This document shows positions 39,431-60,500 of a stretch of DNA of 64,000 nucleotides, piece after piece (positions within the stretch are counted from its first letter, which is position 1; every line of letters starts with the position of its first letter). The stretch comes from a virus. The stretch spans positions 1-64,000 of IMG/VR virus record IMGVR_UViG_3300033998_000198; one strand, 5' to 3'. The position numbers and the translations under genes were made by a program. The notes under the pieces are model-generated. The model made no database searches. It was not told the DNA's origin and saw nothing but the letters and a program-made list of their open reading frames with translations.

Positions 39431-39440
39431 GGAGGCTGTC

Positions 39441-39791
39441 ATGTATAATTTATATCCGTATGATTATGACTATATTACCCCGATTGGGAAGCAAGATGTT
39501 ACTTTTGATAGCCTAAACGCAAAAGACTATGGTATAATATATAGGTGGGCATCCAAAGATTTGAAAGTCAAAGTATACGCCATTGCATATTACCCAGGAG
39601 GTATTTACAAAGAATTTTACGCTGATGTTTTGATACAGCAAAATACAAATGGCGAAATAACAGGAGAATTTGTAGAAGATGCCTTTAAAGAAGCTGAGGA
39701 TTTAATTGTCGGCAAACCGGAGTACATAGAATTTATCATTACACCGTTTAAATGTGCTCCTATGAAATGGATGTTATATATCAAGGGGTGA
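39441..39791 (+). CDS. Hypothetical protein
   Basis: 116-aa ORF with AAGGAGG RBS. Confidence 0.55.
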   Translation: MYNLYPYDYDYITPIGKQDVTFDSLNAKDYGIIYRWASKDLKVKVYAIAYYPGGIYKEFYADVLIQQNTNGEITGEFVEDAFKEAEDLIVGKPEYIEFIITPFKCAPMKWMLYIKG

Positions 39792-39796
39792 GGTAA

Positions 39797-40603: not shown

Positions 40604-40615
40604 GAGGGTGGAGAT

Positions 40616-41762: not shown

Positions 41763-42359
41763 ATGTTTGATCCAAAACAAGTAGACACGTTAGTAGCTAC
41801 AGCAAGAGAGACTTTGCGTAGACAACAGGAGGAGATGACACCAGGAGAGCCGGAGAATTTCTATCAGGACTTGATAGATGAGCAAAACGGAGAACAGGAA
41901 AAAGTTAAAGTACCTGAGAACGATTATGAAATAAAGAATGCTCCGGATAGTTACGAAGAAAGACCACATATTGCAAACAAACCAAGTGCAGAAGATTATC
42001 AGGAATATCCTAAAATTGATGAATTCGATAAACCAATATTCCCTGGCGGTCCGCTGCAATCTCAAATCAACTCCTGGAAGAAACAGTTCACAGGATATGA
42101 CATTTACGTTACAGAAGTGGCCGGAGAATACTTTGTATTCAGGACTTTGAACCGTTTTGAATACAAACAGATTGTATCTTTGCAAAATACAGATCCTCTC
42201 ATGCGTGAGGAAATTATCTGTGAAACCGTTACACTGTGGCCGGCAGGTTATAAATGGGATAGCATGGCAACGGGGAAGGCCGGCATTCCATCTACTTATT
42301 CTCAGATTATCATGGAGAAATCAGGATTCACTAAAGATTACGCTATCCAAATACTATAA
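41763..42359 (+). CDS. Tail assembly chaperone 1
   Basis: 'YFVFRTLNRFEYKQI...EEIICETVTLWP...AGIPSTYSQIIMEKSGF'; position between tube and tape-measure loci. Confidence 0.7.
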   Translation: MFDPKQVDTLVATARETLRRQQEEMTPGEPENFYQDLIDEQNGEQEKVKVPENDYEIKNAPDSYEERPHIANKPSAEDYQEYPKIDEFDKPIFPGGPLQSQINSWKKQFTGYDIYVTEVAGEYFVFRTLNRFEYKQIVSLQNTDPLMREEIICETVTLWPAGYKWDSMATGKAGIPSTYSQIIMEKSGFTKDYAIQIL

Positions 42360-43066
42360 TGGAACAATTACAAGCATTCGATCTTTTGGTATTCAAGGAG
42401 CAGAATGAAGGTCACAGGGTCATGTATATCAATATTTGTAATCGTGAGTTTGTATTTAGGACTCTTGGAAAGAAGGAATACAAGAACATCCTGAATGTTG
42501 CAAATAATGAATTTGATCTCGAAGATATGATATGCCAGATTGCTTTGATATACCCTGAAGACTTTGACTTCAAGGATTGTCCTCTTGGAGGGTTGTCAAA
42601 GACAATTGCTCCTTTGATTACCGAACTTTCCGGATTTACCAATCCTGAGATCGTCCAGGAGACTTACGACCAGTATCGCCTGGAAATGAATAGTTTTGAG
42701 AATAAGGCATATGCCCTCATTAAGATGGCATTCCCCGAATTTACGTTTGAAGAAATGGAAGAATGGACATGGGATAAGGTTCTCAAGGTTGCAACAAAGG
42801 CAGAGTTTATCCTGAATGAAACTCACTTTAGAGATAACCCTATCGAGCTTGTCAAAGTAGACACTACGCCGCAGAAACAAATGGAACGCACTGAGTTTGT
42901 TCAGGAACTGCGGCAACAGGGTATTGACCCGATGAAATATTTCTGGAATGAAATTAATGTCAAGCCTCAATATGTAGACTTTCCGTTAATCGGTGGTGTG
43001 CATTGGCAGAACGAGGGGATATTGAATGAGATCAGACGACAGATGGAGAGAGCATCTAAGAGGTAA
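42359..43066 (+). CDS. Tail assembly chaperone 2 (paralogue)
   Basis: 'EFVFRTLGKKEYKNI...EDMICQIALIYP...GGLSKTIAPLITELSGF'; TAATG coupling to chaperone 1. Confidence 0.7.
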   Translation: MEQLQAFDLLVFKEQNEGHRVMYINICNREFVFRTLGKKEYKNILNVANNEFDLEDMICQIALIYPEDFDFKDCPLGGLSKTIAPLITELSGFTNPEIVQETYDQYRLEMNSFENKAYALIKMAFPEFTFEEMEEWTWDKVLKVATKAEFILNETHFRDNPIELVKVDTTPQKQMERTEFVQELRQQGIDPMKYFWNEINVKPQYVDFPLIGGVHWQNEGILNEIRRQMERASKR

Positions 43067-46000
43067 ATATCCAGAGTATCTGGGCAGACAGAGAAAATGG
43101 GCCGAAGATTATGACAGAGACGATACCGTAAAAGACGACAGCATCTTATCAAAACTGCTTATCGCTGCGGCGATAGGTGCTGCCGGATATGGTTTATATA
43201 AAAGCGGTGCATTAAGAAAGGCCATCAGTAAAGGCATTGATGAATTAGGGGAGTATAAAGGCGTTATCCCTGAAGCATTCAATGCCTTAAAAGCATGGAC
43301 TAAAACTGATGTGGATGTTCCAATCGGAAGCATATTCCGTCAGAATTTTTCCTCCTTAAAGTCTGTATCTAACTTTGTAAAGAACAAGGACATTATAAAT
43401 GACACCCTTGCCGATTTACGTGGTCTTCGTGAAATGGTTCAAAAGAGGATCGCACAGGTTAAAGATGAAGCCGACAGGATTACCAAAATGGCTGTCAAGG
43501 AAACAGACTTATTGTTTGAGATAGGTAATCTCAATGAAATGATGGATTCTGTCAAAGCAGACGATATACTGAAACGCCACCAAATGGAAATCGGAAACAA
43601 GGCACTTCAGACACTGATAGAAAAGAGAAGCGAAGGAGCTATGTCAAAGGCTGCCCAAGCAAAGCTCAAACAAAATGGATACAGGCTTCTTACTATAGGT
43701 GATGTTCTCAAGGTAGACACACAGACAAATAAACCGTTGCTTATTAACAGCACAAGCAGGTTCGAAGTAGAAGAACAGACATTAAAAGAACTGACAGATT
43801 TCTTCTCTACCTTTGAGGTAATAGACAAAAAGACCGGGAAGAAGTCTCTTGCAATCAATAACTTTGACATGATCAAAGACATCACATTCGATAGAGGACT
43901 CATGATCAATGAGTTCGGAAAGATTGCAGACATAAGGCGAGCTGACAGACACTTTGCACAGATGATGGTTTCTGCTTCGCTTGATTTTCATATACCGTTA
44001 ATAAAGATACGTCCGTTTGAAATGGTCGGACTGCATAACAAATTCATGCGTCAGGAAGTAAAATACGGTTATCTGTCTGCAAAAACATTTCAGCCAATAC
44101 TTACAGGTAAGCCCGGTCAGGAGTATCTCGGCAAGAGCATGGTGTTCATGCACGGTAATGTATTTGACATAGATAAAAACGGTAACATGAAATTAGTTGC
44201 CCAGGGAGGTAAACTGCTCCATATTCGTGACGACGCAAACGTTGGATATGGAATCAGCAAACACGCCGATATCATAAGAAAAATGGCAAACCTTCAGAAT
44301 GTACACTTCCAGACGTACACAGCCGAGGACGGACGAATCAAGGCGGCTTACTCTAAAGTGATGGAATGGTTCGGGCTTGGTTTCCAGGACAAGAAGATAT
44401 CAACGGAATTTGAACTCTTTAAGCCTTCAACATGGGATTCTCTACTTAATAAATGGCAGCCGTTCAGGCCATACAAATCCTCATTTGTAACAAGACCGCA
44501 GGATTCTTTCGGACATTCTCCGACAGGTCCTACGTATTTGTTTATGTATCAAGGCAAGACATTTAAAGACGTAATGCAAGGCAGCGTATCTATAGAGGAT
44601 TTCTTCAAGCAGTTTGTTGCAGGAAGAAAGAACTTGAAGAATGTAACTACGGCAACAATGGTTCCGTATCATCTTCTTGACCGTCTCAGCAACTCGCTGA
44701 GAGCTGTTAGTGCAGGTGGTATTAGCCTTGGCTTAAAGACAGAAGACCTTGGATCGGTCCAGGATATCTTCAAGAACTTGATGCTAAAGCGTATACTTCC
44801 GGTTTATCTTGGCATACAGGCTTGGATATACATAAATAACAAAGAAGAAGGCAAACAGCCTGAAGACAAGATTGCAAATACTGTTGTAAACCTCGACCTT
44901 GCATGGCATGGAGTAAAAGACAGGCTCGGCCTTACATCTTGGGCAAAACGTGTATCTCAGCTTATGCCAGGAGGAGAGCAGATAAGTGACATTCCCGGTC
45001 TTGGAGTTCTCGATATGACTTCAACCAGGGAGGAAAAAGAACAATGGTACAAGACTGGTATGGAGCCAATTCGTAAAGGGCGTTACTGGAGTCTTGGCAA
45101 TACTCCATTTACTGGAGGCAAGATAGAATATTATGCACCAAATTGGTACAGAAGGGTAATCAGCGATTACAAGTGGACAGATTCACAGTGGGGAAGTCGG
45201 GATGAATACTTTGCAAATGCTCCATTTCCGACTCCAAAATATCCTTTCGCTCCAATACGGCACTTTATTACTGACCCGTATCATTGGGAGAAAAAGCATT
45301 ATCATGACAGACCATATATGCTGTCGTCTCCGGCATTCAGTAATGTACCAATAGTAGGTCCTGTACTCAGTGCAACTCTTGGCCGGCTGTTAAAACCACA
45401 GATTCGCATGCATCCTGAAGCATGGGCACCAAAACTTGAAGGGTATTCGGTCGTGGATCAAGGAACAGGAGATAACACCGGTACTGTTCTTCCTGACCAA
45501 TTGGTTGCAACAAATAGGTTTCCTGGAACTGAAATCACAGTTGTCCCTGAAGCAGAAATGGGACAGAAGCCGCTTGATTCATTGTTTCATTGGAGCAGGA
45601 AACCGAAGACCAATACAAATGATATTATATATGTTACGCCAAGCGGGCAAACAAGCATTGTCAGCATACCTAACAGCATCTCAATCAAGGATTTGAACGA
45701 CCAATTACGTAAAGAATCAATCAGGAAAGTCCGTGGTGCGTCTGAGAAACGTGATGGTGGTCTGATTAAAGATAACGCTGTTGCAAAACAACTCATCAGC
45801 AATATCGAGAATACGTTAAATGACCAATACGATGTATTCTCTGAAATTGGAGGTATATATGGATTCGGTATCAATGCTCTTATAGGTAATGGTTCTGATG
45901 TTGGTGGTGTGGAAATCGAAACACCCGCCTATGCGACATCCTTAAATAAAGCATTCTGGGATCAGGATCTCGGTGGACTTGGTGGAGAATTCTCTGAAAT

Positions 46001-48617
46001 CTATCGTAGGTTTATACCAAAGAGAAGGCGTGAGATTGAATATTACAATCCAATCAGAAACACCATGCCTACATGGATGCCGGGAACAGATTATTTTACA
46101 GACTTCCAGCATGGTGATCCTTACGCCAAGATTAAACGTGGAGAAGCAAGACTTCCTGGAGAAGGGTATGAGAAGCTATATGGAATCAGAGACCCTATGG
46201 AGCTCGGAATAGGTTCGTCGTTTATAGGTAAATCAGTTGATGATATCGTTAAACATTTCTTACACCAGGACGAAATCATAGACGAAGACCAGCTTGATAT
46301 TGTGCAATCTGGTACAGATTTTCATGAGAAAGTTCAGTCGGCATGGAAAAAGAAAGGCTTGCTTCTTGATGCAGAAGTTGAAGTTAATGACAGGAAACAC
46401 AATGTCATTGGATTCTATGATGCACGTATTCTTGATGAATCTTCACCAACAGGCGACGCTATTGCTGAAATAAAGACAATCAACGATAATGGGTTTAAGG
46501 AACTTGACAAAAAAGGGCCAATGGATTACCACCAGAAACAGCTTAACTTCTATCTGTGGGCAACACATAGGCCAAAAGGTTATATTTATTACATCAACAG
46601 GGATCATCCGGAACAGGAAGCAAAAATATTCCCTATGGCATATGACCAGAAGATGATGGAAGAAACATTCAAGAATCTTGAGCAAGCCAGGAAGATCATC
46701 AAAGACAAAATAGCCTTAAATGAGATCCAAAGAGGAGACTTGTACGATTACTTTGACAGGTTCCGCATACTTGCAGATGTAGCACCATACTCAAAAGAGT
46801 TCAAAGAATACAGGGCTTTGATAAGCAAGATGCAGCTAACCAAGGAACAAGAGGCTGAAGCAAAGGAAATACGTAAGCGTGTAATTGAACAAAACAAACC
46901 GCTTAGGATATATCCTTATAAATTCCAGACTTCAAACATAAAAGTACAGACTGTAACTGTAAAACGCAAGATAGACAACGAGAAGTTCCTTACATATGAG
47001 TTCCCTGACAACCCAATAGAGCTTGCCGGCGTTAATCTTCCTAACAGCAAAACTTCCAAAGAAGGGAGGGCAGCAACTCAGTTTATTGACCGGTTTATCC
47101 ATGAAGGAGCCAGGATACAGGTCGGAGTTGATGCAGACCCGTTGAACCTTATACAGGATAACACTTATAAGACGATCAAAGCTGTCGTATACTCAGGCAA
47201 GACAAACATCAACCGCACGGCAATACAGCAGGGAGTAGGAAAGGAAAATGAAGATGACTTCTCGCCTGCCGGTGTTCATGCTCGTTTTACCGAAGGTGAA
47301 ATCAGATTCGGCAAAGTATGGGAGAAATTCGCTCACTTGAATACTATGTTCCATATAAAGTTCTTGCAGGTAAGGTCTGCACTTGAGAGTTATGAACGCA
47401 GGGATTTATACGGCAAAGACTTTCAAAGATGGGAGCATCCTATCCGGGACTTCCTCCGCCCAGCAATCGACCAGAATATAAACAACAAGTATGGAATACT
47501 GGTTGGCGGTTTGGTCGGCTCATTGTTTGGCCGTACACTTTATGGTAAAATTATAGGAGCAACAGTTGGTGTTGCAGTAATTGGTTCAGGTAAGGCATAC
47601 AAGAAAGCATATGAATTAATTTCAGGTGAGAAATGGATACCTGAACGCAGGGAAAAAGAACGTGATTTAAACGAATACATTGACATCCTGAAATTTATCA
47701 AATACAAGCGATTGTATGTTGAGTATGCACAGAAATCAAAACTCAAGGAGAACTTTGATGTTCAGAAGTTCCTTGACGCTCAGAAAGCTCGTGGTGAAAA
47801 AAATAAAGCAAGAATCAAGGATCTTGAAGAAGCAAAGAGGTTAATAAAAATCAAGGGCGACAGTGCAATACGGTCGATGTATAAACAGTATAGACCAAAA
47901 TACGGCACCCCAGGAATGAACGTGGACGAGATGATATCTGCAATCAACAAAGAAATGACAGAACTCATGAATGAACGAAAGGCCGTTAAAGTTCCAAAGA
48001 TTGCACAAAAGGCCATTGCATACTACAACTTATCAGAGAAGACCATGTACGGATACGATGTCGGAGAGCCTATCCAAAACATCCTGGCCGCAATGCCAAA
48101 GAAGGATAGACAGTATCTCAGTTACTTTATGAAAGCTCCGGAAGAAGAACGCATGAAGATTCTTGAGGTGGCTCCACGGTATGTCCGCAGGGTTCTCGAA
48201 CAAACATGGGGGCTGCCTGTTGAGGGCAAACCAGATCTTATTCAGTATTTCAAGCACCATCAACTTCCAGGACCTGACTGGGAAGGATGGGATGAAAACA
48301 TAAACCTGGATCTGGTTAAAGTTAAAATGGTTCGTAATGAAGCCCTTGATATTTCAGATTTTAATATCTGGGAAGACGACGTGCAGCAGGCAAAAGCAAT
48401 GGGACCTATTCCGCTGCCTAAACTATATATAAGTGACTATGCAGAGAAGGTAAAGGCAAAACTCGAAGATCTACTGCACGGAATAGGACTAAACGACGTA
48501 TCTGTAAGCTATTCTCTATCATCAAAGGATATTGATGTAGATATAGACCTGCAAAGAGACAAAAAGAAAGAGATAGAGAGGTACATTAACGAAAAAGGTG
48601 CATCTCTATTCCAATAG
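43026..48617 (+). CDS. Tape-measure-position protein with a PD-(D/E)XK nuclease and an SNase-like domain
   Basis: 1863 aa directly after the chaperones; Gly/Ala hydrophobic stretches; motifs GTDFH1100, E1117, D1132, E1148-I-K1150 and Q1172LNFY; SNase-like segment at ~46950-47260. Confidence 0.75.
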   Translation: MRSDDRWREHLRGKYPEYLGRQRKWAEDYDRDDTVKDDSILSKLLIAAAIGAAGYGLYKSGALRKAISKGIDELGEYKGVIPEAFNALKAWTKTDVDVPIGSIFRQNFSSLKSVSNFVKNKDIINDTLADLRGLREMVQKRIAQVKDEADRITKMAVKETDLLFEIGNLNEMMDSVKADDILKRHQMEIGNKALQTLIEKRSEGAMSKAAQAKLKQNGYRLLTIGDVLKVDTQTNKPLLINSTSRFEVEEQTLKELTDFFSTFEVIDKKTGKKSLAINNFDMIKDITFDRGLMINEFGKIADIRRADRHFAQMMVSASLDFHIPLIKIRPFEMVGLHNKFMRQEVKYGYLSAKTFQPILTGKPGQEYLGKSMVFMHGNVFDIDKNGNMKLVAQGGKLLHIRDDANVGYGISKHADIIRKMANLQNVHFQTYTAEDGRIKAAYSKVMEWFGLGFQDKKISTEFELFKPSTWDSLLNKWQPFRPYKSSFVTRPQDSFGHSPTGPTYLFMYQGKTFKDVMQGSVSIEDFFKQFVAGRKNLKNVTTATMVPYHLLDRLSNSLRAVSAGGISLGLKTEDLGSVQDIFKNLMLKRILPVYLGIQAWIYINNKEEGKQPEDKIANTVVNLDLAWHGVKDRLGLTSWAKRVSQLMPGGEQISDIPGLGVLDMTSTREEKEQWYKTGMEPIRKGRYWSLGNTPFTGGKIEYYAPNWYRRVISDYKWTDSQWGSRDEYFANAPFPTPKYPFAPIRHFITDPYHWEKKHYHDRPYMLSSPAFSNVPIVGPVLSATLGRLLKPQIRMHPEAWAPKLEGYSVVDQGTGDNTGTVLPDQLVATNRFPGTEITVVPEAEMGQKPLDSLFHWSRKPKTNTNDIIYVTPSGQTSIVSIPNSISIKDLNDQLRKESIRKVRGASEKRDGGLIKDNAVAKQLISNIENTLNDQYDVFSEIGGIYGFGINALIGNGSDVGGVEIETPAYATSLNKAFWDQDLGGLGGEFSEIYRRFIPKRRREIEYYNPIRNTMPTWMPGTDYFTDFQHGDPYAKIKRGEARLPGEGYEKLYGIRDPMELGIGSSFIGKSVDDIVKHFLHQDEIIDEDQLDIVQSGTDFHEKVQSAWKKKGLLLDAEVEVNDRKHNVIGFYDARILDESSPTGDAIAEIKTINDNGFKELDKKGPMDYHQKQLNFYLWATHRPKGYIYYINRDHPEQEAKIFPMAYDQKMMEETFKNLEQARKIIKDKIALNEIQRGDLYDYFDRFRILADVAPYSKEFKEYRALISKMQLTKEQEAEAKEIRKRVIEQNKPLRIYPYKFQTSNIKVQTVTVKRKIDNEKFLTYEFPDNPIELAGVNLPNSKTSKEGRAATQFIDRFIHEGARIQVGVDADPLNLIQDNTYKTIKAVVYSGKTNINRTAIQQGVGKENEDDFSPAGVHARFTEGEIRFGKVWEKFAHLNTMFHIKFLQVRSALESYERRDLYGKDFQRWEHPIRDFLRPAIDQNINNKYGILVGGLVGSLFGRTLYGKIIGATVGVAVIGSGKAYKKAYELISGEKWIPERREKERDLNEYIDILKFIKYKRLYVEYAQKSKLKENFDVQKFLDAQKARGEKNKARIKDLEEAKRLIKIKGDSAIRSMYKQYRPKYGTPGMNVDEMISAINKEMTELMNERKAVKVPKIAQKAIAYYNLSEKTMYGYDVGEPIQNILAAMPKKDRQYLSYFMKAPEEERMKILEVAPRYVRRVLEQTWGLPVEGKPDLIQYFKHHQLPGPDWEGWDENINLDLVKVKMVRNEALDISDFNIWEDDVQQAKAMGPIPLPKLYISDYAEKVKAKLEDLLHGIGLNDVSVSYSLSSKDIDVDIDLQRDKKKEIERYINEKGASLFQ

Positions 48618-48628
48618 GGGGTTAAAGC

Positions 48629-51600
48629 ATGGCAATTAGACCGGTAATGAGTGCTAATATGAACAGTAACCTGAAGATGAACAGGTATAGTGATTTCTTC
48701 AATGGCATGGATGAAGAAAAGATTGACGCATATAAAAACGTCCGTGGAATGATAGATGAGTTAAAAGGTACTGAAGCCGACGTATCATTAAAGGACTTTT
48801 ATTTCAAGTCATTCAATGCAGGAGTAATGGATTATAACATTCCTGCACTTGAGCAAGGCATGAATATGTTTAATGATATGCTGGACGCCGGTGCCGGTTC
48901 TGTGTACGCAATGGACCTTGAAACTCTCGGCAACCCTTTTGGTGATGCATCAGAAAAGGGTTTGTTTGCCATTACAGAAATGACTCTTACCAAGAAAGAT
49001 CTCGCAACAGGTACTGTCCTTGACGTACAAAACGTCCTGTTCGGCCTTACTGAAGAACAAAGGCTTGCTTACGAAAATCTGATTGCCAGAGCTGAACTCG
49101 GATACAACTCATTGACCAGTTCAGAAAAGGCAACTATAGAACGTCTTGCAAGGTATGGAGCAAAGGATACTAAGATTATTAACAGAGGAGGCAAAGCAAT
49201 ACTTGCCAACCTCGGTATAGCTAATCCTATGGATCTTACCGCAGCAAAGAAGGGTTTAAATAGACTTGTAGATATAGGTCCCGGGCAGGCATGGGGTAGC
49301 CAGTTTGCCCGTGACCAGCTAATCATTGCATCAAATCACTTAAATCAGATAAAAGGCCCAAACAATATTTTGTTCACACACAACGGCAGCAAGTTTGATA
49401 TGCCTGCTTTTAACGAAGCATTACGTATGCATGGTATTAGCAATACAATTAACGACATAAACCATGTTGACTTTCAAGCTGCCATTCATACAGCATATGG
49501 TGGAGATACACTGAATCTTCACTTAACAGCCCGTGAAACAAACGGTGTAAAAGGTAAGATTAAAGGGGCTCTTGAAACTCTTGATAAACTTGCAGAATCT
49601 TTTGGTATAAGGACTCACGCCCATGTTGCCTCAAACGACAACAGGACGTTGATTAACCTTTTAACTGCTCCGTACAGGAAAACTGAGCATGGTACAATCA
49701 ATCTTGGCCAGGACTTAAAGTCCAGACTGAATGCATATTCAGTTCTGTCAAAACACCAGGACATTGATCCAAGCACTGTTGCTGACAAGGTTATATTCGT
49801 AAAGAATGCCGTATATACAAATGGTCTTGACTACATAAAAACAAGTGAAGGAATCAAACCTTACGGAGACTGGCCATTACAAAGGAATAATTTCTATAGG
49901 ATTGAAAATGTCGGGAAAGTAAATATCAAAGACACCGCTTCTTTGCGGAAGATAGGCATAAATGTGCCTGCCGGAAGCACTGGAAGTGATCTTTATTATA
50001 TGACACTACGCAATGTGGCTACCGGTAAAGAAGAAGAAACAATAAATATAGTACGTAGTTCAAGAGAAGAACTTCAGGCATTGTTCCAGAAAAATCTTGA
50101 GGTGTTCCGGTACACTAAAGACCTTAAAGATATAAGTTCAGACCTTGACGCAAAGATGGCATTGCAAAACCAGATTGTAAGCCAGGCAATGATTGATGAA
50201 ACGACAAGGCTTGCCACAAGGGACAATGCAAGACGTAAGTTTGAAGGTATGTTCCAGACTTCAGGTAAAGGGTTTAATTATGCCAAAGGAATGTACCAAA
50301 CCTATAATAATTTATACCAGAACGGCATTACAACAGCGGAAGAAGCGGCACTCTATATCCAAAACAATCCTACAAGTGAATTGTTAAGAGGTCTTCAGTA
50401 TAAAGGAGATATTATACCCGAACGTCGTAGTGATTTCCTTGAGATGTTCAACCTCATCAGAGATACTTCAGACACGATGACTACTGTAATCAACAGAATT
50501 GAATCCAACATCCCAGTCAAAGGAGAAGCTGGAACCGTCAAAAGGACTGTTGCTCTCGGACGTGCGTATGAGAATCTTCAGAATGCAATTATGCAAGCCT
50601 CCGGTGTTGCTGAGAACATAGCAAAGAACAGGAAGCTGATAACCCCATATCCAATGGATATTGACGTTATTAATATAGGTGTTGATGACATTCATAGAAT
50701 CACTGTAAGGGCTCGTTCTGTTGAAGAAGCAAGGATTAACATATTAAATGGAATAGACAAACTGGTAGGTACAGAGAAGAACAAGAGGGCAAGAGAAAAC
50801 AAACGAATGTTCTATCTAAGACGGCTTGCAGAGAATGTCTATGGAAAAGATTCAGAGAAGCTGGAACGTATGTTTGGTCAGCTTGACAGTGCATACTATA
50901 CTGCCGGAGAAATTGCAGGCGACCTTAACAAACAGTTCCTTGACGGAACATTAAATATCGGCCGTGACGAGATATACGCTACAGATCTTGATAGTTATGT
51001 CATCAATTCATCTACATTTGACCAGTTCATGGTTGATAATAACATTAACGTTCTTGGCTTGACCGACGCTGCAAGTGCCCATATCGGGTCTTTAACCGAG
51101 GCTTCTCTTGGCGATACAGTTGTCATGGAAAAAGGCGTGTTTACCATTAAGGATGAAAACCTTAGAAAACTCTTGATGGAGGATTATCACTATAGTGCAG
51201 ATAACGTGCACGACCTTATGAGAGGATTATATGGTAAAAGTCCGGATGGTACTGAATACGGCCTTGTCAATAAACATGGTTTGGTTGCCGAATTGTTTGT
51301 TGACGAAGAAGGGTATCTTTCTATAGCATTGACAGACAAGAAACATGCAACAGAATTATACGAATCTCTGGCAAAGAACGAGGTTCCAAAGAACGCGGCC
51401 ATATCAAGGCTTCCGCAGGTAAGCTATTATGGCGATGACACTGACCTGTTAAAGAAGGTGTCATTTGGAAGCGTTGAGAAACAGGTAACTACTGAACTTA
51501 ATACATATTATTCTCCTGGTTCGAGCGAAAGCTATTATAATAACATCAGGATAGCTGCAAGGGACACAACCAGCGAATCGCTAAACTCCCTTGTTAAACT

Positions 51601-54600
51601 CCACAGGGTTCTTCCTGACCTGATAGAAGCAGGAGAGTACGACAGAGCTTCAAGGCAGCTTACAAATACAATGGCTGCTCCTATATTTGGAGGTTCTGGT
51701 TTCTCAGGAAATACAACAGTAGCAATTGACGATATTCTTGCTGAAAAAGCTCTGCGTCCGAACGTATCCGATATTATCACGGCATCGACCGTAGATATGA
51801 CCGGACTTGTAAACTTCATCCCTGAGCTCTATAAAAGAGACGAAGAAATAAGAAATGACCTTAACCGCATACTTGTAAACAACAAAGCGATCGACGACAG
51901 ATTTATTGATAACTGGATAAGGGATATCCAGGCAGGAAACCTCAAACAATTCAGTGACATGGACATCGAGTTACGTGAATGGTACACGATGAATATGTTT
52001 GAAGGTCATAAGATACTGCATAAAATCCGCGACCTTAAAGCTGAAGGAGGACGTTTATTCCAGAAGGAAGTCTCATTACTTGACAGCTTGATTGCAAATG
52101 GAGCTTCGTTCTTTAACAAGGCTGAAAAAGTATCTGAGGGTATTGCTGTATTGGAAAATCCATTTGAGTATGTAACATATGGATTCATGAATGAGCTTTC
52201 CCGTCCTGTCGCAAGGCAATCACTTGCATTTCACGCCCTTGACCCAAGAGAACTTACAGGTGCTTCAGTTAAGCTCGAAGCGGCCGGTATGAAACTTGGA
52301 CAGACTGTAGTTACAGACAAAATGTATAACAAGTATCTGAAAAAGTATAGGTTTGAAACAGGAATTACCGGTGACATAAAGAATTTGAATGACACCGAGA
52401 TACTTGATGCAATAGAATCTCTTGACAAAGAAGAATTATACAAGAAGTATGGTAGGTCAAGAGTTGATAAGGTTATAAATGAATATAAGACAATCGGTAG
52501 TACATTCCAGCAGCACTCATTGATTAATCCGATGCTGACTGCTGACATATACAACAAACCTGAGCTTATAAAATTTGATGTGACAGGCAATAGTTTTGAG
52601 TTTGCCGAAGGGCTTGGTGTTGGTAAAAAAATCAAATCCGGTTCTTTACTCGGATACGAAATAGACGGAGAAACAAGAAGGGCTGTTGTATACAATGGTC
52701 AGGATGGAATAATCTCTGGATTTATCAACAGAAAGAACGCACAAAAAGTTGTCATAAAACCATTTAATGCACAGATAGATGAAATAAAGCTCATCATGGG
52801 AGGTGTTGAAAAATCTGTTGCATCTGTTGTAAACCGAGATGCCGAAATGCTTCCTATAGCTCAGGAAATCTGGGATAAACTATTTGGTAAGAGTACAGCG
52901 GTCGTAGGGCGATTTGAAATAGGAAAGCACGAAGCTGCAAGCATCGCATACGGTAGCACTATTACCAGAATGGCTGAAAGAGCTCTTGAGCATGGAGAAG
53001 CTGTACAGAATGAATTCGCCAATCTTTTAAACCAGAACCTTCCCGAATGGAATGGCCGATGGGAAGGAAACAAGTTTGTCATTTCAGGGAATCCGAATGC
53101 TGCCGGAGGACATTTCAGCGGCATACGAAACCTTGTTGATGCAATGAGAGATAAGGGTATTTATGATGATATCATAGCCGACTTTGACAATCCGAACACA
53201 AATACGCTGCGTACTTTGATATCTAAAGGTCAGATGTCCGAAATGTTTTCTGTCATGGAAGACGAAGCGGATATTTACGGAAAAGGTCTCAAAATTACAG
53301 ACCGTGAGTTACAGATTGCAGGTATTAGATCTGGAGAACAACCGACGGATTTCTTTTTCCAGGATGCCAACGGTAAATGGCAAAAGAAATTACAACCTGT
53401 TATTGACGCATGGCGTGAGGAAATCACACGAGAAAATATCGAGCTTGAGAACGGTAAATTACTTGAAACCAATTACAGCAAAGCAAAGAAAGACCTTAGA
53501 AATATAACCAACACATACAGTGCATTGCGTGGCGAAACACCGACAGCAGCTATTAAAGAACTTCATTTTGATGATGTAAAACCGATATTAAAAGGTGTTG
53601 ATGCTGCAACACTCGAAGATGCTTTAAAAGGGACTGTGTTTGAAGATGTTGCCGATGTGTTTAAGATTACCCTTCCAAATAATATGAAGGTCTTAAACAT
53701 GGTTACAGGCGAAATGGATGACCATATTTATATACCGTATCTGCACTCATACGATATTGACGGCAAGGTTATTACACATAACGCCCACAGAAAATCAGCA
53801 GACCTTCTAAGGATGCTTGACAGTATTGCCGAAGGCAAACTTCCTAACGGCGTAAGAAGCATGAGTCAATTACAGAGTGCATTAAATGACGCTTATGCTG
53901 AAGCTATGGCCGCATACGGGCGTGAACTGTCTGATGACAAGAACAGTATATTAAAGAGACATCTGGTGTCCGGAAGATTATCACATTCGGGACAGGGACT
54001 TGCTGGTGCTGTTGTTTCACCTGAATTATTCAAAAACGGCGAAGTAGATTCACGGCTTGCCGGAATTGTGCATAGCGATGTTGTAGAGAAGGTCGGAGAT
54101 AAAATACTCTATAAGGATGTTGCTTATACATCTGCTGAGATGCTCGAAGACATGGGTGTTAACTTTGCAGAGATAGGGCGGCAGGTTCTTGAAGACAAGA
54201 AAATACGTTCTCAGATTGGTGACGTGGACGCATTTATTGCAAGATCCGGATTTAACCGCTATGATCTTACAAAGGCACCTATAGACATTGACATGCTCCA
54301 TGAGATCATCAAGCAGAAGATACTGAAAGACAACAATCCTTATACAATAGATGATGCAAGGGAAGCCCTTGAGAACCTCACTCAGCTTGGTAAATATTAT
54401 GCAAGAGAAAAGGGTATCATGAGTATAATGCTTCGTTATCCGTCATTCTTGCAAACATCTCTTGGAGTAACAAATATCAGATTGTCTCCTTACATGCATG
54501 GTCGTAAATTCAACATCATGAGTTGGACGGCAGCAGGATTAAACGCCGACATTGACGCTGATAGACTTTCTGTATGGCTCAATCTTACAAAAACCGGAGG

Positions 54601-57523
54601 ACTTCAAGCTGATACTGAAGTTAAACAGAAAGCACTGATAGATGTATTTAACGCTCAAGCAAGAAACAATGCCAAGCTATTTAAGAAGGCTCTTGAAGAT
54701 TATGCCGACGTAGAGCCTGACGGACTCAAGGCTTATAGTGCAAAAGGCTTCGATGAATTTCTTGTCAAGAAGATTTCAAAGAAGTTAGGGTACACCGGAA
54801 CAGATCAGGAAATCTTCGACCAGTTTGATGCAAGATCCAACAAACTGATGGACCCTGAAAGAAGAATGACAGCCGTAAAGGCCAACTTTGACAAGGCCGG
54901 TATCGGTTATATATCAAACACTAATGTGATTGTAAGGGATATAGCTTTTGAACAATTCAGAGATTCTGGTGATATATATACACTTTCAAACATCCTTGAG
55001 TTTACAGACAAGACAGAGCAGAAACTGATTGACGTTAAGCATATGAAAACAATGGGCGAGGGAAGCGGTAATATTGATGATATCATTATCAAAGCCGGAC
55101 GATACAGAACTGCAATAAACACCCTCGCAACAGGTGATGCAAGGCAAAAAGATGAAGCAATCAACAAACTTCGTGAAATTTTGTTCAATAGTGATGTTTA
55201 CAAGAGAGAGCAGTCCGTAAGGGTTGATGAAGTTCTCAGTTCGCTCCGTCAATTGTTTGACAGCAAGTATGCAAAACAATGGACAAACCCAATCAGAAGC
55301 AAGATGTCAGGAAAAAATTATGCCGAACAGATTAAGGACGTCAATAACTTCCTGAAGAATCCCACAGCATACGGCGGGACTGAGTTAACAAATCTTTCTG
55401 TCAATGAAGTGATTCATGCAAATGATATAGACACTATAAGCATTGACGATACAGCTCTTGTTCCTCCATCAAAAGGAACAGAATATCCCGTCTTGCTAAA
55501 GGACAGTGCTGGCAAAACATCTCCACCAATAGGTGCATATGTATATAGTGGTTCAGGTGTTGGTGCCAATACCAATATGAAGTATGTTGAGCTTGAAGAA
55601 TTCATCACAGATCCTTCTGTAAACAAAGCAAGAAGCAAACGTTACAGGATATACGGCAATACAATGGCTGATATCCAGCGTCAGATGAGAGATGAGTTCA
55701 GAGTAGCAACTGACATCAATGATGTCCAGAATTTGATTGATGTTGAGAAGGGTAGAATCCTTGACTCGGCGATGTCAAGCGGTTTTGAGTTCGAGAAAGA
55801 GCGTATTACGGCTGAATTCTTAAACGGTGGAAGTATTGATGATATTTTGGCCAAATCAACCATAGGGGTAGAGAACCGTCAGGATATCATCGATCATCTT
55901 ACCAATCTTAACCCTACTCAATATCAAAGCGAAGCATACAGGCAATTGGCTTCAGAGTTCTTTGACAACGAAATGACTGGCCGGCCAATGCGTAGATTCT
56001 CTGCCGCAGTATCAGAACTGGCTGAAAGAAATTACATTGGAAACCAGGCAAGTCTTATACAGGCATTTAATAACTATATACGGCAACGTGGTGCTGAAGG
56101 CCCTTCAGACAAATGGAATCCTGCAATGATTTCAGATGTCCATGATGAATTAATCCGAAAGGCATTGTATCAGGTTCCAGGTCTTCCATCAGCACAGATA
56201 GAAGGAATCCTAAACCAGGTTAACACCGTAGCGGACGATATGATAGCCCGTAAAGGAGAAATACGGTTAAGACCTGCTAAAGTACAGAATGTTGCCGAGA
56301 CTATTGCAAGAATACAGGATACTCCATTGTATGACATGAAAAGTGCCTTCTCTCAACTTGAGAACATGGCAAACGATATGTTAGGCAATATAACAAAAAC
56401 TCAACTGGAAAGTTTTGCTGAAGCAACACGGCTTAGTCCCGAAGATGCTATCGCAAAACTTAGGCATACTGTAAAGAACGAGAATATCCAACTTCCATTC
56501 AAGGCAATCACTCAGGCTGAAAGCGTTAAGATAGCTTCGCTTAACCAAATGTATTCAGAGCTTCTTGCGTCAAAGAACCAAGAAGCAATGGATTTCCTTG
56601 GCTGGAAACCTATAAATGAAGTTGTCAACGCATACAACCCAAGTGCGGCAGCAAGAGCTGTAGGTGAAACTTACGACCCAATTGCGGCCATACGTGAAAT
56701 TGGCCAATCCAAAGTTACTTATGGAAGATATGCCGGCATGGAGTTCTCGTCATTATCAATCGGGGAGCTCAAGGAAATTATGAATCTCCGTCCTGAAACT
56801 GCAAAGACCAGAATTGAAGCGGACAATATTGTAGCTCTCAAACAAAGAGTAAATCAATATTTCTCATTGCTTGACCAGAATACATCAGCAGTAAGAGCTG
56901 AAGGAATTAGTATAAATATTCCTGAAGCTGTACGCAAATCGAGGTATGTTGATGTAGATATAAACGAACTTTTAAAGTCCAATGGTATAAAGTTAAAGAA
57001 CTTGGACGATTTATTGGATACAACCAAAAGGGACTTAAAATTTGATATGGCTCGTGGTACAATAAAAGAAGGGGTAGAAAATGCTGTCAAGCGTTCCGAA
57101 GATTTGTTTGGAAGCAGTAAGTTCGGAAAGATAGCTCTTGCCGGTTTGGCTCTTGGTCTTGCAGGATATATTGTTGGACAGATGAGTGCAAAACCAGGAC
57201 CGCTACAACCGGAGCATAGACCTTCAGGCGAAGGAGCTCCCGCACCAGATGGAACTTACGAACCGAAAGTCAACTATAAAACACCACAACCGCAGATGCC
57301 AAAGAAAGCAGTAATGCAGGAAAACAATTCTGGAATGCGGATAAAGATAAGTGCAAAGAATGGAACCAGCATGTCAAACAGTGATGTTGCTGGAGCAGTA
57401 AACAAAGCCATCGCTGATTCCTTGCCAAATAGAATGAATGTCAACGTGGTTTCAAGAGACGACACCAGTGCAGTCAATGACAGTTGGTTGGAAGAACAGT
57501 TTAAGAGGCTTATAGGAGGGTGA
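48629..57523 (+). CDS. Giant single-chain two-barrel RNA polymerase with an N-terminal DEDDh exonuclease (putative virion RNAP)
   Basis: beta-like: PF...RQ1197, K1387LIMGGVEK1395, G1553LKITDRE. beta'-like: SGR1783LSHSG, LR1936YP, N1972ADIDAD1978. Exonuclease: D96LE98, H251NGSKFD257, H332VASND337. Confidence 0.85.
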   Translation: MAIRPVMSANMNSNLKMNRYSDFFNGMDEEKIDAYKNVRGMIDELKGTEADVSLKDFYFKSFNAGVMDYNIPALEQGMNMFNDMLDAGAGSVYAMDLETLGNPFGDASEKGLFAITEMTLTKKDLATGTVLDVQNVLFGLTEEQRLAYENLIARAELGYNSLTSSEKATIERLARYGAKDTKIINRGGKAILANLGIANPMDLTAAKKGLNRLVDIGPGQAWGSQFARDQLIIASNHLNQIKGPNNILFTHNGSKFDMPAFNEALRMHGISNTINDINHVDFQAAIHTAYGGDTLNLHLTARETNGVKGKIKGALETLDKLAESFGIRTHAHVASNDNRTLINLLTAPYRKTEHGTINLGQDLKSRLNAYSVLSKHQDIDPSTVADKVIFVKNAVYTNGLDYIKTSEGIKPYGDWPLQRNNFYRIENVGKVNIKDTASLRKIGINVPAGSTGSDLYYMTLRNVATGKEEETINIVRSSREELQALFQKNLEVFRYTKDLKDISSDLDAKMALQNQIVSQAMIDETTRLATRDNARRKFEGMFQTSGKGFNYAKGMYQTYNNLYQNGITTAEEAALYIQNNPTSELLRGLQYKGDIIPERRSDFLEMFNLIRDTSDTMTTVINRIESNIPVKGEAGTVKRTVALGRAYENLQNAIMQASGVAENIAKNRKLITPYPMDIDVINIGVDDIHRITVRARSVEEARINILNGIDKLVGTEKNKRARENKRMFYLRRLAENVYGKDSEKLERMFGQLDSAYYTAGEIAGDLNKQFLDGTLNIGRDEIYATDLDSYVINSSTFDQFMVDNNINVLGLTDAASAHIGSLTEASLGDTVVMEKGVFTIKDENLRKLLMEDYHYSADNVHDLMRGLYGKSPDGTEYGLVNKHGLVAELFVDEEGYLSIALTDKKHATELYESLAKNEVPKNAAISRLPQVSYYGDDTDLLKKVSFGSVEKQVTTELNTYYSPGSSESYYNNIRIAARDTTSESLNSLVKLHRVLPDLIEAGEYDRASRQLTNTMAAPIFGGSGFSGNTTVAIDDILAEKALRPNVSDIITASTVDMTGLVNFIPELYKRDEEIRNDLNRILVNNKAIDDRFIDNWIRDIQAGNLKQFSDMDIELREWYTMNMFEGHKILHKIRDLKAEGGRLFQKEVSLLDSLIANGASFFNKAEKVSEGIAVLENPFEYVTYGFMNELSRPVARQSLAFHALDPRELTGASVKLEAAGMKLGQTVVTDKMYNKYLKKYRFETGITGDIKNLNDTEILDAIESLDKEELYKKYGRSRVDKVINEYKTIGSTFQQHSLINPMLTADIYNKPELIKFDVTGNSFEFAEGLGVGKKIKSGSLLGYEIDGETRRAVVYNGQDGIISGFINRKNAQKVVIKPFNAQIDEIKLIMGGVEKSVASVVNRDAEMLPIAQEIWDKLFGKSTAVVGRFEIGKHEAASIAYGSTITRMAERALEHGEAVQNEFANLLNQNLPEWNGRWEGNKFVISGNPNAAGGHFSGIRNLVDAMRDKGIYDDIIADFDNPNTNTLRTLISKGQMSEMFSVMEDEADIYGKGLKITDRELQIAGIRSGEQPTDFFFQDANGKWQKKLQPVIDAWREEITRENIELENGKLLETNYSKAKKDLRNITNTYSALRGETPTAAIKELHFDDVKPILKGVDAATLEDALKGTVFEDVADVFKITLPNNMKVLNMVTGEMDDHIYIPYLHSYDIDGKVITHNAHRKSADLLRMLDSIAEGKLPNGVRSMSQLQSALNDAYAEAMAAYGRELSDDKNSILKRHLVSGRLSHSGQGLAGAVVSPELFKNGEVDSRLAGIVHSDVVEKVGDKILYKDVAYTSAEMLEDMGVNFAEIGRQVLEDKKIRSQIGDVDAFIARSGFNRYDLTKAPIDIDMLHEIIKQKILKDNNPYTIDDAREALENLTQLGKYYAREKGIMSIMLRYPSFLQTSLGVTNIRLSPYMHGRKFNIMSWTAAGLNADIDADRLSVWLNLTKTGGLQADTEVKQKALIDVFNAQARNNAKLFKKALEDYADVEPDGLKAYSAKGFDEFLVKKISKKLGYTGTDQEIFDQFDARSNKLMDPERRMTAVKANFDKAGIGYISNTNVIVRDIAFEQFRDSGDIYTLSNILEFTDKTEQKLIDVKHMKTMGEGSGNIDDIIIKAGRYRTAINTLATGDARQKDEAINKLREILFNSDVYKREQSVRVDEVLSSLRQLFDSKYAKQWTNPIRSKMSGKNYAEQIKDVNNFLKNPTAYGGTELTNLSVNEVIHANDIDTISIDDTALVPPSKGTEYPVLLKDSAGKTSPPIGAYVYSGSGVGANTNMKYVELEEFITDPSVNKARSKRYRIYGNTMADIQRQMRDEFRVATDINDVQNLIDVEKGRILDSAMSSGFEFEKERITAEFLNGGSIDDILAKSTIGVENRQDIIDHLTNLNPTQYQSEAYRQLASEFFDNEMTGRPMRRFSAAVSELAERNYIGNQASLIQAFNNYIRQRGAEGPSDKWNPAMISDVHDELIRKALYQVPGLPSAQIEGILNQVNTVADDMIARKGEIRLRPAKVQNVAETIARIQDTPLYDMKSAFSQLENMANDMLGNITKTQLESFAEATRLSPEDAIAKLRHTVKNENIQLPFKAITQAESVKIASLNQMYSELLASKNQEAMDFLGWKPINEVVNAYNPSAAARAVGETYDPIAAIREIGQSKVTYGRYAGMEFSSLSIGELKEIMNLRPETAKTRIEADNIVALKQRVNQYFSLLDQNTSAVRAEGISINIPEAVRKSRYVDVDINELLKSNGIKLKNLDDLLDTTKRDLKFDMARGTIKEGVENAVKRSEDLFGSSKFGKIALAGLALGLAGYIVGQMSAKPGPLQPEHRPSGEGAPAPDGTYEPKVNYKTPQPQMPKKAVMQENNSGMRIKISAKNGTSMSNSDVAGAVNKAIADSLPNRMNVNVVSRDDTSAVNDSWLEEQFKRLIGG

Positions 57524-57530
57524 GGTCATA

Positions 57531-60500
57531 GTGGCAGACTATAGAAAAAGCACTTCCCTGTTCTCTAAATACAGAGATCCGGGAGGTATTAGCACAGGCG
57601 AGCTATTAGACAGATATTACAACATTCCCGAAGGCAGGACTACAGCTCCCCTGTCTTACCTTGATAATGTCGATTTTCCGCATAGGATATTCGATTTCCA
57701 TTATAACTTCAGACTTGGCGATTGTCAGTTCAAGATCCCTCCGGAATTCATACAGGTAAAGACAATTACCGAAACAAATTCCGTTGTAGGAATTAGACAG
57801 TCTACTTCGCTAAAAACCAAATCCGGGTATAGCCGTAAACAGATCGTTATTACTCTGTTTTTCAACGGACTTAACCAGATCAACGGATATAAATGTGAAT
57901 CGCCTTTTTCATATCCTTACTACATGGACGGTCTCCGGAGTCTTCTTGCTCAATTCAAGAGGACCCCGTTCCTTCCTGTTGTAAATGAACTTATTAATGG
58001 AGTACATGGAATATACAATGTAGCATTATCAAACATTACAATCAACACCGTACAGGGGTTTCCTGAATGTCTCCAGGCGGAACTCACGTTGCTTGACTTT
58101 AACGTCGTACCGTTGATTGAAGCTCCTCCTTTTATGTATCATAACATGATAGACTGGGATATGTTCAGATGGTACTATCAGCAATTACTTCGCCCTGATG
58201 ACAGGGTATACGACAGGAACGAACATGCTACAACAAGACTTCAGCCGATACAGAATACAAACCTTACAGGTAAGTTCGGATTGTATATATTAAGCGAAGA
58301 AGCTCTTGCTGCAATGAACGACGGAAAGTACAAGCCAGACCTAAGCGACAGCAGTAACTATATACTGTGTGTTGACGACGAAACCGGTATACGCCTGACA
58401 GATATATTCTGCGGTTACTCAAACGTGCTTCCTGCAATACAGTTAAGCAAAGAAGGGACGCCTACGTATCAGTATCTTGGAGGTACAGATGCGACGTTTA
58501 CCTTTATATTTGAAACTCAGGACAGAGATGTCGTTACGGCTCTGGTTGACTTAAATGAACGATGCCAGAGGATGGTAAGGGAGTACCGCAAACTTCACGG
58601 CCTCGGCTTCATCAAAATAGAGAACGAATTAGTGCAAATGCTCGGTGCACAGTATGTCATGTTCAATACAATGGACATCACTACTGTGCCCGACTTCCCA
58701 GATTTGTTTAGAATACAGATAGAGGCTGTAAGTTACGATATTGACCAGAGTAAGAAAGAAACATTGACTGGCATGAAGCCTTTCGATGGCGATGGCACAT
58801 TGCTTGCCAGAAAAGTAGGTACAACCTATGATTGGACTGAAGTCGCAGAACCAAACACAACCATCACTAACACTTATATGGGTCTTATCACAAAGATCCG
58901 GCAGGACAATTACATAGAACACAAGATGAAGCTCATGGACCTTTATCCGGACCTTCAGCTACCTACGTTTGAAGAATTGGATGATTTTATCACAACCATA
59001 AGAGAATGGAGAAGGAGTAAGGGGCTTCAGGCATATCCTTTGTCTGGACCGTACCCGAAAGACGACGGTAGAATTAAATTCTCAGATCCTGATTTCTACG
59101 TTTTCTACCCTATTAAATACGGAGACGCACAGAATATTATAACAGGAACCGGAGGAAATGTAGGAGGAGAAACTTACGATCCTGATGACGGTGCAATTTC
59201 AGTTGCCGGTATATTCAAGTCTGGATTGTATGGTGCAACAGAAACTACGCCCGGACAGCACCCAAAGACACAAGAATTGCTTAAACTTCTTGAGAGCAAA
59301 ATAGGATGCGGATATGTATGGGGTGCTGAAGGAGAGATTCTTACTCAGGAAGGTCTTGCTGCCTTAAAGAAGCAATTTGGAGCAAGTCATTATGATTTTG
59401 TTGATGATGATGGCACTCGTGTTCTTGCAAGTAAATGGATAGGTAAACAGGTGTTCGACTGCTCTGGATTTATTAACTGGGGGCTTATCCAGGTTGGAAT
59501 TGCTCCAAAAGGATACAGAACCACACATTCAACTACTTTTAATGACTGGTGTATCGAAATCAAAAAGAGCGAAATACTCCCTGGCGATATAGCCATGAAT
59601 TCAACCCATATCGCAATGATATCTGATCCTGACAAAGATCAAACAATCGAGGCTATGGGTACACGGTACGGTGTTGTTCACGGAAAGATAGGGAATAGAT
59701 TCACAAAGTTTGGAAGACTAAAAGGCGGAAAGACAAAGAGCTCAACAACTCCAACACCGAATGCCGCAACTCAACAGGTTAGCAAGGCACAGACTACAGA
59801 TTACAATGCAAAGCGTGATGCTTATAACCCGACATACCAGGCAATTTACGATTATGCAAACATACAGTGCACAAAGCTCGGCGTTCCAATTCGTCTAATG
59901 TGTGCAATGATGGAGATAGAAAGTAATTGGACACAATGGTGGACGACAGCAGGGAAGAAAGCGGATGGCAAGTACCATAACGCAGGAGATGTTGTAAGGT
60001 CTTACGCAAATGCTGTTGGTATCTGCCAAATTGTGCACCATAGTCCTAACGGTACTCCTGTCAATAATCAATACGATTATGACAAACTGCAAAATGACTG
60101 GAGATATAATATAGAGTGCGGGGCCAAAGAACTTTATGAATGCTATAAGGGGGCATCACAAAGATTTACAAATGAAGAAGACCGAGCAAGAGCTGCATGG
60201 TGTGCATATAACATGGGGCGTTATGCAAGTCAGAGCTATACAAGATGGAGAGATAACCCTAACAGGGATGATATAAAGTTTAAGGAATATTATGAGAAGC
60301 AACCCTGGTTATCGAGAATTGACACCGCAAAGATTCCGACTTCCAATGGGACAGATTACACTGGAAGCGTAGAAGTTCCAGAAACCGACCTTAGTGTTAC
60401 AAACAACTTTGCAAGTCTTAACTTCAACAGGGAGGAATTCGGCAAAGATATACGCAGACTGTCCGACATCCACGGCGGTGTAAAAGAAACCAAGAACTTT

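Follow-up and report, generated by a model that had tools for sequence, protein, structure and literature searches.

In positions 1 to 64,000 of the IMG/VR virus record IMGVR_UViG_3300033998_000198 (the whole stretch of 64,000 nucleotides analysed here, called the window), the open reading frame (ORF) at 43026-48617 on the plus strand encodes a protein of 1,863 amino acids (aa) with zero cysteines, which by homology is a giant virion protein of the gp145 family of 0305phi8-36-like jumbo myophages. Motifs, profiles, a structural model and conservation confirm that residues ~1050-1236 of this protein are a PD-(D/E)XK fold of the Cas4/RecB/lambda-exonuclease type with a complete, conserved catalytic set. 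With moderate confidence, we favour the reading that the gp145-type giant is carried in the virion and exits through the tail, bringing a pre-made nuclease for DNA ends into the cell. The record around the window is 131.9 kb long, with an estimated completeness of 61%. The features at the centre of this account are the following.

43026..48617, plus strand: giant virion protein, gp145 homologue, 1,863 aa, no cysteine (by homology to 0305phi8-36 gp145)
46173..46733, plus strand: PD-(D/E)XK nuclease cassette, aa ~1050-1236, of Cas4/RecB/lambda-exo type without iron-sulfur (Fe-S) cluster (by PHROG, hidden Markov model (HMM) alignment, AlphaFold model and conservation)
H1100 (46323), D1132 (46419), E1148 (46467), K1150 (46473), Q1172 (46539) and Y1176 (46551), plus strand: nuclease catalytic set (by motif and alignment)

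An earlier note on this DNA, made from the letters alone, had proposed that the protein carries an intact PD-(D/E)XK nuclease with its full motif set, and all the motifs it quoted are found within nt 46311-46604: GTDFHEKVQ (aa 1096-1104), AEVEV (1116-1120), GFYDAR (1129-1134), IAEIKT (1146-1151), QKQLNFY (1170-1176) and KGYIYYINRD (1184-1193). Searched alone against PHROG, the domain matches phrog_1706 (Cas4-like, ‘CRISPR/Cas system associated’) at E 1.3e-16, and further the exonuclease family phrog_2506 (2.9e-9), the Cas4-domain exonuclease phrog_1990 (4.9e-7) and the RecE-like phrog_434 (1.3e-6); for the whole protein, phrog_1990 is the sole match (E 1.2e-5). The relevant Pfam families are PDDEXK_1 (PF12705), Cas_Cas4 (PF01930) and SNase (PF00565). 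PDDEXK_1 matches 4 of 14 domain sequences and reaches 25.9 bits in homologue P0045, above the Pfam cut-off. In an HMM alignment with Cas4 SSO0001 (PDB 4ic1), the D of motif II, the ExK of motif III and QxxxY are paired residue for residue, the partner motifs in SSO0001 being GRADAII and IEIKT, with QLQIY aligned to Q1172 and Y1176.

The structural model agrees with these assignments. AlphaFold, run on aa 925-1475 with a 64-row alignment, gives a predicted local distance difference test (pLDDT) above 90 from about aa 1054 to 1434, and in model numbering the core consists of a helix (163-185) and three strands (189-198, 203-212 and 220-228), followed by further helices and strands. The structural matches by VIA are Cas4 SSO0001 (4ic1; Z 14.3, 3.0 A over 147 residues), LHK-Exo (3syy; 13.5), Cas4 of the Cas4-Cas1-Cas2 complex (12.8), MGME1 (12.8), lambda exonuclease (3slp; 12.7), Dna2 (10.7) and RecE (10.5), and Foldseek concurs (lambda exo, E 1.9e-5). 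The alpha-beta-beta-beta-alpha-beta core of restriction-endonuclease-like enzymes, the D...(D/E)xK triad and QxxxY are all present, and the earlier expectation of a restriction-endonuclease-like fold is borne out by the matches to Cas4, LHK-Exo and lambda exonuclease. A three-copy complex prediction, which asked for a ring like that of lambda exo, scored 0.00 and speaks neither for nor against such a ring.

The domain shares the core fold (Z 14.3 to 10.5), the D, the (D/E)xK and the QxxxY with the group formed by Cas4 (SSO0001), RecB, AddB, lambda exonuclease, MGME1 and Dna2. It differs from this group in having neither cysteines nor a 4Fe-4S cluster, in having no link to CRISPR, and in being embedded in a 1,863-aa virion protein, whereas the members of the group stand alone or are fused to a helicase. 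It is also distinct from Cas4 sensu stricto, which has a four-cysteine Fe-S cluster and a CRISPR-cas context; here the gene lies in a phage tail module. The earlier remark that the Cas4 cysteines are missing extends to the entire chain: no cysteine occurs anywhere in the 1,863 residues, and therefore the domain, like lambda exo, has no Cas4 Fe-S cluster. Stand-alone relatives of the nuclease domain (83-265 aa) were sought by a word-based search, which found none.

Conservation was assessed with 120 homologues that are 42-53% identical over aa 1040-1270. H1100, E1117, D1132, D/E1148, K1150, Q1172 and Y1176 are conserved at 97-100%; D1132, K1150, Q1172 and Y1176 each reach 100%, and an acid is kept at position 1148 in 97% (mostly Asp). 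From sequence and model it is plausible that the domain acts as a metal-dependent DNA nuclease. An alternative is that it does not cut, and serves as a DNA-end-binding or structural module, for example by guarding the leading genome end in the way T4 gp2 and Mu N hold or protect it. The SNase-like domain adjoining the cassette is already devoid of catalytic residues, and 4 of 13 loci with the cassette keep the domain with decayed PD-(D/E)XK motifs, both of which would suit a non-cutting module. However, catalytic residues that are kept so strictly at such low identity indicate that more than binding is demanded, and we give this alternative little credence.

In order to trace the cassette among related phages, IMG/VR was scanned with a full-length family alignment, which returned 76 viral loci; a search of viral contigs for related loci with the nuclease domain alone found nothing, and the full-length alignment was needed. 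A domain HMM detects the nuclease in 13 of the 76 loci, 0305phi8-36 included. In the latter the domain was missed by tblastn because of an insert of ~60 aa between motifs II and III and was recovered by the HMM; its gp145 retains H, D, DxK and QxxxY. The cassette is flanked by ...RLPGEGYE on the left and RGDLY...DRFRILADVAPYS on the right. Measured with flank HMMs, the two lie 176-244 aa apart wherever the domain occurs (13 loci), while in the 62 domain-free loci that could be measured the gap is 1-28 aa, mostly 7. Judged by these alignments, the nuclease is a clean, optional insert of ~185 aa in one loop of the scaffold. In 4 of the 13 domain loci (L009, L011, L013 and L014) the motifs have decayed, with parts of (D/E)xK and QxxxY lost. 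The sequence pattern is that of an add-on held by strong selection in the clade of the present protein and decaying in others.

A much larger set gives the same association. The domain profile was compared with 1.84 billion cluster representatives and gave 1,195 matches at E<=1e-3 (96 at E<=1e-30), the matched clusters being defined at 50% identity. Both scaffold flanks are present in 116 of the 135 top profile matches beyond the sequences already collected, and therefore this nuclease subfamily lives almost only inside the gp145-type giant.

A clean insert, lying 16 residues downstream of the intein site Y1033/A1034 in a family that often hosts inteins, might also be a domesticated selfish element resembling a homing endonuclease and having no role for the phage. 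This explanation appears very improbable to us: the cassette has no splicing motifs, its fold and QxxxY are those of end-processing exonucleases and not of known homing endonucleases, and it is stably inherited with conserved catalytic residues (1,195 clusters, with both flanks in 116 of 135).

The same phage record has a stand-alone PDDEXK_1 gene (G000:C1:101581-102306, minus strand; locus L079:1432-2253, minus strand) that scores 46.5 bits, above the cut-off, and adjoins a RuvC-like resolvase and thymidylate synthase. Derivation of the cassette from this gene of the phage's own was considered and rejected, as the two have no BLASTP similarity. Since the stand-alone gene is separate and unrelated by BLASTP, the virion-borne copy is not simply the recombination nuclease of the phage.

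That the protein belongs to the virion is indicated by its best relative. By tblastn against phage genomes this is ORF145 of the Bacillus thuringiensis jumbo myophage 0305phi8-36 (gp145, YP_001429636.1), with 34% identity across 97% of the protein length. The record of 0305phi8-36 names gp145 a ‘virion structural protein’, and mass spectrometry places it in virions, so that the protein is structural by homology, as the earlier note had supposed. The two proteins are alike in being full-length homologues without cysteine, in their slot between gp143/gp144 and gp146, in their PD-(D/E)XK motifs and in the SNase-like domain; they differ in the above-mentioned insert of gp145. Relatives are publicly annotated as ‘virion structural protein’, ‘structural protein’ or ‘hypothetical protein’, and in the literature searched we came across no paper that speaks of a nuclease in gp145 or any other tail-module giant.

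The gene order of the type phage is sheath, tube, gp143 and gp144 (‘hypothetical tail chaperonin’), gp145, gp146 (‘hypothetical tape measure protein’) and gp147, a hub with wall-degrading domains. The window has the same arrangement: its large genes are all on the plus strand, the upstream genes match tail sheath and tube families of PHROG, and the giant gene is surrounded by the following.

41763..42359, plus strand: tail assembly chaperone paralogue of gp143 type, 198 aa (BLASTP to 0305phi8-36 ORF143, E 3e-35; phrog_29362)
42359..43066, plus strand: tail assembly chaperone paralogue of gp144 type, 235 aa (BLASTP to ORF144, E 4e-30; phrog_29368, phrog_29362)
48629..57523, plus strand: second giant in the gp146 position, 2,964 aa, no cysteine (by gene order; NADIDAD at aa 1974; hydrophobic segment at aa 2832-2850)
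57531..63161, plus strand: hub and cell-wall-degrading giant, gp147 homologue, 1,876 aa, 27 cysteines (phrog_20474, E 5.7e-287; Pfam SLT)

The order chaperone, chaperone, gp145-type giant, second giant and hub is kept in the 26 viral loci inspected. The two chaperone ORFs are paralogous, the C-terminal domain of the first matching the N-terminus of the second at E 9e-13, and the second runs 41 nt into the start of the giant gene. Hardies et al. (PMC2147016) read the paralogous domain of gp143/gp144 as a G/GT pair without frameshift, and the ORF at 42359..43066 fits such a G/GT-like arrangement.

The earlier note had rightly placed the gene directly behind the tail chaperones, and from there had taken the protein for a tape measure; the latter claim is not supported in that form. 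As the first gene after the chaperone pair it occupies the usual position of a tape measure, and it has hydrophobic, glycine-rich segments, which would suit a ruler with an embedded nuclease. However, at least 950 residues (aa 520-1475, about half of the protein) model as compact globular domains and not as an extended helix. The gp145 family is conserved end to end with a size of about 1,600-2,250 aa, while the next gene is hypervariable (1,236 to 3,134 aa across relatives) and sometimes split. In the type phage, the 1,930 aa of gp145, taken at 0.15 nm each, would reach over about 290 nm, compared with a tail of 486 nm (PMC4113786). From the above, this protein is probably not the tail-length ruler, and we consider it unlikely that one chain here serves as ruler and carries the nuclease as well. 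A likelier candidate for the ruler is the next gene, in the gp146 position.

Hardies et al. assigned the ruler to orf146 and described the chaperones as ‘one gene removed’ (PMC2147016). Among relatives, the second giant is alignable in its last ~150 residues alone, a part that includes the hydrophobic segment, and on sequence a tape measure seated on the hub would be expected to behave in this way. The length of gp146, however, also falls short of the 486-nm tail: its 2,537 aa correspond to about 380 nm. No sequence match to the second giant was found in the PDB. Its single DxDxD motif, at aa 1974, reads NADIDAD; the counterparts in the two closest viral relatives are NADVDGD and NADVDAD, and a regular-expression search of 0305phi8-36 gp146 did not find the motif.

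Both giants exclude cysteine. The other genes of the window encode 0.755% cysteine, compared with 0 in the 1,863 residues of the gp145 homologue (P = 7e-7) and 0 in the 2,964 residues of the second giant (P = 2e-10); the hub giant has 27. The counts in 0305phi8-36 are 0 for gp145, 0 for gp146 and 10 for gp147. Across 23 diverse loci, some bearing the cassette and some lacking it, both giants contain 0-1 cysteines, with one exception that bears an intein. The strict exclusion spans giants of 750-3,100 aa (window 43026-57523, loci L003-L074), and the hub and ordinary virion genes are normal. This composition suggests that the two giants share a fate that forbids disulfides or metal clusters, which would most likely be storage in, and passage through, the tail channel. 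Such a fate would also account for the recruitment of a nuclease type free of Fe-S clusters.

The nuclease might instead act in the producing cell or during assembly and never be delivered, for example in trimming or processing DNA at the portal-tail junction or in clearing host DNA. We hold this to be improbable. Terminase normally makes the ends of phage genomes, most relatives with the same virion module lack the cassette, and for work inside the cell a separate replication-module PDDEXK_1 nuclease exists; the absence of cysteine, being common to the tape-measure-like giant, points to a shared exit route. An assembly role would nevertheless agree with virion membership, which is the sole experimentally supported fact, with relatives of the Cas4/RecB/lambda-exo type that work on DNA ends, and with the defined blunt ends and 6,479-bp terminal repeat of the 0305phi8-36 genome (PMC4113786).

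Outside the cassette, the protein is built from the following parts.

43140..43196, plus strand: N-terminal hydrophobic helix, aa 39-57 (Kyte-Doolittle mean 1.56 over 19 residues; Y58 and G61 conserved)
44583..46175, plus strand: conserved scaffold core, aa 520-1050, no fold match (AlphaFold predicted template modelling score (pTM) 0.72; holds the intein-site motifs N692/T693 and Y1033/A1034)
46731..46922, plus strand: conserved helical linker forming the right flank of the cassette, aa 1236-1299 (RGDLY...DRFRILADVAPYS; found family-wide)
46923..47327, plus strand: SNase-like domain of oligonucleotide/oligosaccharide-binding (OB) fold, aa ~1300-1434, catalytically degenerate (by profile, Foldseek and VIA)
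47493..47591, plus strand: glycine-zipper hydrophobic segment, aa 1490-1522 (mean hydropathy 1.33)
47592..48614, plus strand: conserved C-terminal region, aa 1523-1863 (the part that tblastn aligns most strongly in all 76 viral loci; no family match)

Residues 520-1085 model confidently (pTM 0.72), and no PDB structure was matched by Foldseek at E<=0.001, the best VIA hit having Z 3.4; the core may be a new fold, as far as the model can tell. In BFVD it finds family members only, and one of them bears the name ‘Large polyvalent protein associated domain-containing protein’. Searches of the non-nuclease segments against Pfam and PHROG gave no family match for any segment. The invariant polar residues of the core are H796, E991, R994, R995, N1008, N1012, D1031, E1040, R1042 and E1049.

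The SNase-like domain is recognised at E 0.0067 by a thermonuclease profile, at E 6e-6 by Foldseek (SNase) and by VIA (1sta, Z 11.2; Tudor-SN, Z 10.9), and Pfam SNase (PF00565) scores above cut-off in homologues P0011 and P0014. It shares the OB fold with staphylococcal nuclease and Tudor-SN. Unlike in staphylococcal nuclease, the positions of R35, D40, E43 and R87 are replaced family-wide, by A, P, K and T/S in the HMM alignment, which makes the domain resemble the inactive SN domains of Tudor-SN. Across the family an Ala-Gly pair occupies the R35-L36 positions with 98-100% conservation. As the catalytic residues are replaced, this is an inactive OB fold, and from its sequence it would most plausibly be a nucleic-acid-binding helper. 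The Gly/Ala hydrophobic stretches described in the earlier note are also present, at aa 39-57 and aa 1490-1522; in the latter, the glycine zipper, G1498 and G1502 are invariant, and G1507, G1511 and G1515 are nearly so.

Class-1 inteins (Cys ... HN|Thr, with LAGLIDADG domains) occur in homologues P0007, P0011, P0026, P0030, P0042, P0043, P0048, P0064 and P0086. Their sites are N692/T693 (GN|TPFTGGK, window 45093-45122) and Y1033/A1034 (HGDPY|xKI, window 46110-46133), both being used in some relatives, and these are the two most conserved motifs of the scaffold core. In the cultured relative Bacillus phage vB_BauM_KLEB27-3 (OM634661.1, locus L080 6565-13718), the gp145 homologue is represented by two ‘structural protein’ coding sequences, gp031 and gp033, parted by a 211-aa hypothetical ORF (gp032). 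This split suggests that a mobile element lies in between, or that an intein or intron has gone unrecognised.

According to the reading that we favour, the protein would be built into the virion along with the tail-internal proteins and would leave the tail with the DNA or just ahead of it, as the neighbouring giant would. The hydrophobic helix and the glycine-zipper segment may then insert it in a membrane, and the pre-made nuclease, assisted by the OB domain, could act on DNA ends before any phage gene is expressed, cleaving as a metal-dependent exonuclease or single-strand endonuclease. We infer the tail-lumen location, the ejection, the catalytic activity and the target alike. Each close structural relative of the nuclease is either an end-processing exonuclease or a single-strand endonuclease. 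An accessory role of the conflict type is favoured, given that the cassette is an optional part and that some lineages keep it only in decayed form. By our rough estimates, the chance that host, competitor or defence-related DNA is the target falls a little short of even; an indispensable step such as the resection of terminal repeats on the phage genome itself is somewhat less likely, and other roles are unlikely. More tentatively, the gp145-type protein and the neighbouring giant could together form a cysteine-free ‘first-minute kit’ delivered through the contractile tail, whose nuclease would target either DNA of the host, of competitors or of defence systems, or the terminal repeats of the phage itself.

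Several observations weigh against this reading. With respect to the enzyme, Pfam PDDEXK_1 scores 16.3 bits in the present protein, under the 22-bit cut-off, and the motif III acid is Glu here and Asp in 97% of homologues; ExK is the form of motif III found in Cas4. As the cassette is absent or decayed in relatives, the scaffold works without a nuclease. With respect to delivery, compact domains of ~20 kDa in several copies fit poorly in a tube lumen of ~4 nm, and therefore the protein might lie in the neck, the baseplate interior or the head. The exclusion of cysteine, too, is explicable by extracellular exposure of a virion protein alone, without passage through the tube.

Enzymes that phages inject ready-made include the virion RNA polymerases of N4 and P23-45, T4 Alt and the muralytic domains of tape measures. 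Enzyme domains in tape measures and injected giants are already established; no paper describing a DNA nuclease carried in a phage tail module was found in the literature searched. The tape measure protein gp96 of Thermus phage P23-45, whose N-terminal part is a virion RNA polymerase and for which a role at the entry pore in genome delivery has been proposed (PMC10770324), is similar in being a tail-module giant that pairs membrane segments with a nucleic-acid enzyme. It differs in belonging to an unrelated siphovirus lineage and in its enzyme, and in gp96 enzyme and ruler are one chain, whereas in the window the nuclease protein has a gene of its own, distinct from that of the tape-measure-like giant.

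A second comparison is with the polyvalent proteins of phages and conjugative elements (Iyer et al. 2017, PMC5512222). These giant chains of many domains have their genes among the late virion genes and carry nucleic-acid-targeting enzymes, and the prediction is that they are packaged together with the DNA and injected along with it. The window protein likewise joins a scaffold with PD-(D/E)XK and SNase-like domains in one giant among virion genes, and one BFVD structural relative of its scaffold bears the name of the large polyvalent protein associated domain (LPD). In contrast, its gene lies in the tail module and not beside head or MuF-type genes, and Pfam detected none of the polyvalent hallmarks (zincin-type peptidase or LPD domain) in the window protein or in four relatives.

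Other genes of the tail module bear domains related to the cell wall. The hub giant (57531-63161) has an SLT lytic transglycosylase above the Pfam cut-off and a weak NlpC/P60 match below it, and the small ORF behind it (63206-63586) has a weak, sub-threshold match to Phage_base_V (gpV-like spike OB), an arrangement shared with ORF147 and ORF148 of 0305phi8-36. Cell-wall-binding modules are also found in the tube-paralogue region (37904-41746). ORF 40616-41746 contains LysM and DUF3597, ORF 39797-40603 contains a copper-amine-oxidase N-terminal-like domain, and ORF 37904-39430 has weak PHROG matches to endolysin-annotated families at aa ~357-438.

With 1,195 clusters, and with nearly all inspected top matches in one giant scaffold, the feature is widespread among uncultured jumbo phages. 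The strict exclusion of cysteine is a simple sequence marker that may help to find other tail-delivered proteins. A direct experimental handle exists in the type phage 0305phi8-36, which can be cultivated and for which virion proteomics is available. Should the ‘first-minute kit’ prove true, injection through a phage tail lumen would have been shown for a nuclease for the first time; if delivered and active, the nuclease would represent a new class of weapon or tool in the first seconds of infection.

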